Virus record (IMG/VR): IMGVR_UViG_2667527608_000004
Origin: a virus
Lineage: Duplodnaviria > Heunggongvirae > Uroviricota > Caudoviricetes
DNA length: 13,458 nucleotides
Reading direction: 5' to 3' (one strand)
Part shown: in pieces, positions 2,930 to 2,983 of the stretch
Layout of the letters: the number at the start of each line of letters is the position of its first letter
How positions within the stretch are numbered: position 1 is the stretch's first letter
Position numbers and translations under genes: made by a program
Notes under the pieces: model-generated
Database searches by the model: none
Told to the model about the DNA's origin: nothing
The model's input: only the letters and a program-made list of their open reading frames with translations

Positions 2930-2983
2930 AAATAGAAATAGAAATAGAAATAGAAATAGAAATAGAAATAGAAATAGAAATAT
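2930..2983. repeat. Hexanucleotide microsatellite (AAATAG)8 plus one imperfect unit (AAATAT)
   Basis: Eight perfect tandem copies of AAATAG at 2930-2977 followed by AAATAT, in the AT-rich divergent intergenic region between the HNH gene and the 590-aa ORF. Confidence 0.95.

Follow-up and report, generated by a model that had tools for sequence, protein, structure and literature searches.

For the routine outbreak typing of E. coli O157, PulseNet relies on eight MLVA loci, VNTR-9 among them, and comparing strains by copy number at this locus has been standard practice since about 2003. Simple repeats of a similar kind can act on transcription, as do the TA repeats between the -35 and -10 hexamers of hifA/B in Haemophilus and the TAAA tract upstream of the nadA promoter in Neisseria. 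VNTR-9, which is the same locus as Vhec4 and TR1, has a 6-bp unit, 6-23 repeats and 15 alleles, and its diversity index of 0.90 is the highest among the eight PulseNet loci, with 31.7% null alleles (PMC3321953 Table 1). The TR1 locus of the O157:H7 MLVA scheme is defined by the unit AAATAG and the forward primer ACTGCATGATAAGCCTCAGG (PMC2246123 Table 2). During serial passage, Vhec4 changed by single-unit insertions at 4.3-4.6e-5 mutations per generation (PMC3777172 Table 2).

Here we analyze an AAATAG array in the window, that is, the whole stretch of 13,458 nucleotides. Judged by its sequence, the array is the MLVA locus VNTR-9 (O157-9, Vhec4, TR1) in an allele free of IS30; the locus was already known. 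Very probably, this IS30-free VNTR-9 is a slippage-prone and most likely neutral microsatellite that sits in a dead IS911-like element of a lambdoid nin region.

Results

A perfect hexanucleotide array in the nin region of a lambdoid prophage

The only strong array that Tandem Repeats Finder reported in the window has a period of 6, 8.8 copies, 100% matches, 0 indels and the consensus AAATAG (Table 1). A regex count gave eight perfect units at 2930-2977, followed by AAATAT, which matches the unit at 5/6 positions; the first-pass annotation, which had described eight perfect hexamers and an imperfect ninth at this place, was correct. It had also judged the array too regular to have arisen by chance, and this holds: at 53 bp, the array is the longest perfect period-6 run in the window, and when the AT-rich segment 2800-5400 was shuffled 2000 times, the longest such run was 11.9 bp on average and never exceeded 16 bp. 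The distances given to the neighboring genes were likewise right: 196 bp separate the start of the array from the HNH ATG, which RefSeq places at 2734 on the minus strand, and 186 bp separate its end from a TTGACG hexamer at 3168-3173. An assembly artefact can be ruled out, since hundreds of complete genomes carry this locus. No structure was predicted when the array was folded as single-stranded DNA (both strands) or as RNA, on which grounds we rejected both hairpin-assisted slippage and a structured RNA element, and an Rfam scan of 2500-5900 (E<=1) gave nothing at the array and only two chance microRNA matches elsewhere.

Read on the minus strand, the window shows by its Pfam and RefSeq annotation the nin region of a lambdoid prophage, with the gene order cI-like repressor, cro-like gene, cII, O, P, ren, NinB, NinE, and then an AT-rich segment with a 590-aa ORF on the opposite strand, beyond which lie the HNH endonuclease, NinG, Ser/Thr phosphatase and Q genes. 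The HNH gene follows a ninF remnant in the rightward early operon and is without an evident promoter of its own. Its ORF starts with the canonical NinG N-terminus MAKPARRRC, and in the downstream NinG ORF (region 1591-2734, minus strand) the first ~30 residues have diverged and the remainder is nearly the same as in HK544 NinG, which suggests that a homing-endonuclease cassette entered the 5´ end of ninG and brought its own replacement N-terminus. A 20-bp sequence occurs twice in tandem at 2676-2716 (Tandem Repeats Finder). We rejected a 38-aa minus-strand ORF at 2727-2843 as a NinF gene, given that its likeness to NinF is limited to a few codons at the end (E 0.036) and the remainder runs antisense to the IS fossil described below. 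At the other end of the region, two co-oriented genes at 10410-11716 (plus strand) lie just after the cI-like repressor, in the position of rexAB. They belong to phrog_2017 and phrog_1960, the latter with DUF1828, and their weak PADLOC matches to PDC-M24A (E 1.5e-3) and PDC-M24B (E 6e-7) make them a candidate defence pair.

The 590-aa ORF to the right of the array has a GC content of 33%, and its product has a Ser/Thr-rich N-terminus and hydrophobic helices. Searches of Pfam, PADLOC and PDB sequences gave no match for this protein, its homologues are limited to E. coli, E. albertii, Salmonella and Providencia alcalifaciens, and its AlphaFold model is unusable (pLDDT 38, pTM 0.26). A 71% homologue in E. 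albertii adjoins genes for NleF and an AvrPphF-family effector, and the Salmonella homologue forms an islet between cdd and sanA; the protein is a candidate type III effector. A hairpin after the gene (5100-5167) was not significant (z = -1.56).

Table 1. Coordinates of the array, the IS fossil that contains it, and neighboring features of the window
Feature	Position	Strand	Evidence
HNH_3 endonuclease gene, 189 codons, left neighbor	2168..2734	-	Pfam PF13392 (E 5.5e-11); phrog_99; RefSeq WP_001108084.1
ninF 3´ end / ninG-type start, phage backbone left of the IS fossil	2706..2751	-	About 95% match to the NinF|NinG junction of HK544, HK106, mEp234, Sf6, ST104 and others
PulseNet VNTR-9 forward primer GCGCTGGTTTAGCCATCGCCTTCTTCC, exact site, overlapping the HNH start codon and RBS	2719..2745	+	0 mismatches; primer from PMC3321953 Table A1
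Decayed IS911-like (IS3-family) element, two internal deletions, ~410 bp	2748..3159 (left end approximate)	+	blastn and tblastn against IS911
Left inverted-repeat core of the IS fossil	2760-2783	+	IS911 nt 10-33, 24/24, E 6e-7
orfA remnant of the IS fossil	2772-2924	+	IS911 similarity, left of the array
TR1 forward primer ACTGCATGATAAGCCTCAGG, exact site	2837..2856	+	0 mismatches; primer from PMC2246123 Table 2
(AAATAG)8 and partial unit, VNTR-9 / O157-9 / Vhec4 / TR1 array	2930..2982	none	Tandem Repeats Finder, regex count, published unit and primers
orfB 5´ remnant of the IS fossil	2982-3122	+	IS911 similarity, right of the array
IS30 insertion point of the O157:H7 allele, 14 bp right of the array (IS30 absent in the window)	2996..2997	none	O157:H7 (L001) junction ...CAGACCAC|TGTAGATTCAATTGG
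Right-end remnant of the IS fossil	3110-3159	+	IS911 nt 1199-1249, 74.5% over 51 nt, E 0.014 (weak alone)
Block invariant between E. coli and E. albertii, GATAACTATAGTTAGACTATATTGACGACCTGATGTGCTGTATGTAATAAC; putative promoter/operator of the 590-aa gene	3140..3197	+	Alignment; inferred
590-aa AT-rich cargo gene, right neighbor	3298..5070	+	RefSeq WP_000612803.1; phrog_9230 (unnamed family)

The array corresponds to an IS30-free allele of VNTR-9

Both published forward primers have exact sites to the left of the array, and neither of the two published reverse primers has a site in the window within 3 mismatches. The O157:H7 strain 86-24 accounts for this difference. Its left flank is as in the window and is followed by 11 units and then by the 19 bp AAATATTAAAACAGACCAC, which the two alleles share; directly after these comes the end of an IS30 (TGTAGATTCAATTGG...), the element in which both reverse primers have their sites. 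Since the array and its flanks are orthologous to those of O157:H7, the window carries an IS30-free allele of the same locus and not a different locus. As the reverse primers have their sites in the missing IS30, this allele would be scored as "null" in PCR typing. We had also considered the array as a mosaic breakpoint, as matches to O157 stop at its right end; this was wrong, given that the 19 bp after the array are common to both alleles and the break is IS30. In the papers searched, nothing beyond the MLVA table was found to connect VNTR-9 with IS911 or Z3935.

Copy number varies in whole units among strains

Of 5,426 complete E. coli genomes, about 525 carry an array with the flanks of the window, which has 3 to 23 units. 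The IS30-free locus was found in 245 complete genomes, with 3-16 units and spans of 321-399 bp (up to 23 units with a 701-bp query), and the IS30-interrupted locus of the O157 type in 283, with 4-17 units. Alignment spans at the locus differ in steps of 6 only. Eleven records with identical flank scores, including O111:H8 strain 8E, have 14, 15, 15, 15, 17, 14, 14, 14, 23, 16 and 14 units; the array changes faster than its flanks gain substitutions. Direct counts gave 8 units in the window, 11 in O157:H7 86-24, 6 in an E. albertii prophage, 16 after an AAACAG first unit in phage SH2026Stx1, and 2 after AAACAG in strain Z1323CEC0008. Apart from this first-unit variant, all arrays are pure. The IS30-free form is found in strains of O111, O145 and O103, among others, as well as in E. 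albertii and in two records of Stx1 phages, and a prophage of the bovine E. coli strain OkiPb01675 shows 100% identity to the window across the 701-bp query (2700-3400).

These counts agree with the earlier suggestion that the tract is prone to slipped-strand mispairing: it ranges from 3 to 23 units among strains and it changes in laboratory passage (PMC3777172). An invariant copy number, which would have spoken against that suggestion, was not seen in the strain comparison, where the locus was polymorphic over the whole of this range.

The array lies within a decayed IS911-like element

A sensitive search with the left flank matched IS911/IS3-family sequence in phages Sf6, SfII and SEN22, and comparison of the Sf6 IS911 with the window by blastn and tblastn resolved a decayed element on both sides of the array (Table 1). 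IS911 nt 155-457 align to 2788-3121, across the array, with 67.5% identity (E 1e-29, blastn). At the protein level, tblastn aligned OrfA residues 24-74 with 53% identity and in-frame stops (E 6e-13), and OrfB residues 1-47 with 49% identity (E 8e-8). IS911 nt 34-154 and 458-1198, the latter about 740 bp, are missing, no transposase remains, and each prophage has a single copy of the element. With only fragments of orfA and orfB, stops, and a deletion of about 740 bp, the element is a remnant and not a functional member of the IS3 family. We looked for a target-site duplication of 3-4 bp and found no matching short direct repeat at ~2748 and 3159, where the ends are decayed and the termini uncertain. 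The first-pass annotation had offered a junction scar of the insertion as one explanation for the array, and this came close: the array does lie between the nin backbone and the AT-rich cargo gene, within a decayed IS911-like element.

In intact IS911, the place of the array is taken by the orfA segment GCATTG AAATGG AGAATG AAATAT, which encodes ..RIEMENEIL.. of the leucine zipper. This segment is present, exactly or nearly identically, in three IS911 variants, and SEN22 differs from it at two bases. The shortest natural allele (AAACAG AAATAG AAATAG AAATAT) aligns with intact IS911 free of gaps. Such a gap-free alignment to an orfA segment that is already 6-periodic argues that the microsatellite was born in place and expanded later.

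In both the O157:H7 fossil and IS911A::IS30A of K-12, the IS30 occupies the orthologous position and points the same way (window 2996/2997; L001 4234; L016 ~485), which suggests that IS911-type sequence is a preferred target of IS30. In strain SMN197SH3 (L003 2990-3001), the other part of an IS30 borders the right flank close to this point, beside tail-fibre genes, an arrangement that indicates an IS30-mediated rearrangement. Elsewhere, a fragment of an IS3-family OrfB-like transposase (13078-13455, minus strand; 32% identical to IS911 OrfB, E 4e-13) is cut by the right end of the window.

Possible effects of array length on neighboring genes

The array had been placed by the first-pass annotation in a divergent control region, where it might modulate the flanking genes through promoter geometry or nucleoid proteins. 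Array length could thus tune transcription of the 590-aa gene (or the HNH gene) through upstream DNA geometry or H-NS/IHF occupancy, and the setting has features that such an effect would call for: the array is AT-rich and highly variable, it lies in the right orientation upstream of an AT-rich, horizontally acquired gene, and promoter-modulating upstream repeats are found elsewhere, with the nadA tract of Neisseria as an example. A promoter-like block, the only such element that E. coli and E. albertii have in common, is also present 186 bp downstream of the array, beyond the IS fossil. This block contains a 10-bp palindrome, AACTATAGTT, followed by the -35-like TTGACG and by TGTAAT/TAATAA, and the sequence just downstream of it diverges between E. 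coli and E. albertii; it is possible that the block comprises the operator and promoter of the 590-aa gene. Its promoter function is putative, since a consensus scan did not report it. That scan, which covered promoters and terminators in 2600-5800, found no sigma-70-like promoter in 2735-3297, between the HNH and 590-aa starts, and fewer sites overall than in shuffles; it is a simple consensus scan that can miss real promoters.

The distribution of the array does not follow that of the gene. Upstream of the 71% (E. albertii islet) and 48% (Salmonella) homologues of the 590-aa gene, the array is absent; it is absent from loci L006-L010 and was found only together with the prophage HNH/nin backbone, as at the E. 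albertii prophage locus (L011). In O157:H7, where IS30 severs the array from the 590-aa upstream region and the gene was not found in the following ~4 kb, the array is equally variable. Moreover, the array belongs to an IS pseudogene and not to the gene's own upstream region, and its 6-bp period is out of helix phase, so that no cumulative bend would be expected. The description as a divergent control region is not supported, with no promoter found by the simple scan and the HNH gene being part of the early operon. Nor does modulation of the flanking genes agree with an array that is 186 bp from the only plausible -35, is missing beside the diverged homologues, and stays variable in O157:H7. 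On balance, we regard a role of array length in the transcription of either gene as improbable.

An effect at the RNA level appears less probable still. In this scenario, array length would tune Rho termination or Hfq binding and hence the timing of Q and of late genes (Stx). From the way O, P, ninB, ninG and Q are oriented, the array lies in the rightward early operon upstream of Q, and the minus strand would appear in the pR-to-Q early transcript as (CUAUUU)n, a rut-like tract that is free of G, has one C per 6 nt and is predicted to be unstructured. Its C content is only 17%, however, about 2.7 kb of untranslated antisense RNA precedes the array, such that one more rut would make little difference, and Rho is overridden by N antitermination. 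The plus strand would read (AAU-AGA)n, a perfect A-R-N motif for the distal face of Hfq, but the scan found no plus-strand promoter upstream of the array, and no Rfam family matched.

The minus strand of the repeat is free of stops in every frame, and an ORF of 54 aa with an (LF)n stretch spans it at 2885-3049, which RefSeq lists as "hypothetical protein" in strains with long arrays. Such an ORF could encode a small membrane protein with a helix whose length varies with copy number. We rejected it as a gene, and this explanation is so improbable that it can practically be set aside: the ATG is not preceded by a Shine-Dalgarno sequence, the ORF is antisense to the IS pseudogene, and in O157:H7 the IS30 removes the start of the ORF and the array persists. 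That it is annotated only when the repeat lengthens it enough is typical of a gene-caller artefact.

There is only a slim chance that array length is non-neutral, tuning either the 590-aa candidate effector gene or readthrough of the pR-to-Q early transcript. If it were, VNTR-9 would also report a phenotypic switch in Stx-type prophages.

Discussion

The history of the array can be sketched as follows. A dead, internally deleted IS911-like element lies between the ninF remnant/HNH/ninG backbone and the AT-rich cargo gene. A few point changes in its orfA segment, which was already 6-periodic, would have produced adjacent AAATAG units, and replication slippage, presumably with no hairpin intermediate, would then have added and removed these in whole units. 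Variation by whole units, the purity of the array, and the occurrence of long and short alleles on identical flanks are the observations that point to slippage. Six-base loops are poorly corrected by MutS-dependent repair, which fits the high mutation rate of the array.

We take the array to be non-coding and free of structure, and selection most likely does not act on its length. In favor of neutrality are the lack of a promoter, an Rfam family or a structure, the absence of the array from diverged homologues of the 590-aa gene, and its continued variability after the cut-off by IS30. A pure array persists in E. coli and E. albertii prophages despite their diverged flanks. This purity could reflect selection, and a high rate of slippage alone also homogenises arrays.

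The practical importance of the array is as a strain-typing marker. The details that are new are its IS911 origin, the dependence of the typing primers on IS30, and its wide occurrence in non-O157 prophages. The IS30-free form is beyond the reach of the standard reverse primers and may contribute to the frequent null alleles (31.7%, PMC3321953); it also matters for in-silico MLVA of genomes with two copies. The traceable birth of the array in a 6-periodic coding segment of a decayed IS911-like element provides a clean bacterial example of the origin of a microsatellite. The IS origin, the spread of the IS30-free form and the shared IS30 site are modest additions, and the repeat itself is ordinary.

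Like the promoter contingency repeats of hifA/B and nadA, the array is an AT-rich simple repeat that precedes a horizontally acquired gene and varies by slippage. Contingency repeats lie in a core promoter or operator or where they shift a reading frame, and they are conserved with the regulated gene across lineages. In contrast to the hifA/B repeats, the array is not between promoter hexamers but 186 bp away from the putative -35; it forms part of an IS pseudogene, in an interval where the scan found no promoter, and changes of its 6-bp unit cannot shift a reading frame. In other lineages, it is not linked to the gene, and it persists where the gene is missing.

The element that contains the array resembles IS911, as represented by the copy in Sf6 ninG and by IS911A of K-12. 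The left inverted-repeat core is identical over 24 nt, homology extends through orfA and the 5´ part of orfB, and the right ends are similar. The Sf6 element is also inserted in the nin region of a lambdoid phage, and the K-12 element has likewise been hit by IS30 at the orthologous position. The element in the window differs in being a fossil, about 67% identical to IS911, with a microsatellite where IS911 has GCATTGAAATGGAGAATGAAATAT.

The closest relative is VNTR-9 of O157:H7, with which the window shares the perfect array of AAATAG units, the left flank, which includes the sites of both forward primers, the 19 bp that follow the array, the prophage neighborhood (HNH, NinG, phosphatase, Q), and copy-number polymorphism in whole units. 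The two alleles part to the right of the array. There, O157:H7 has IS30 and with it the reverse-primer sites, both of which the window lacks, whereas in the window the array remains continuous with the other parts of the IS911-like fossil and with the 590-aa gene.
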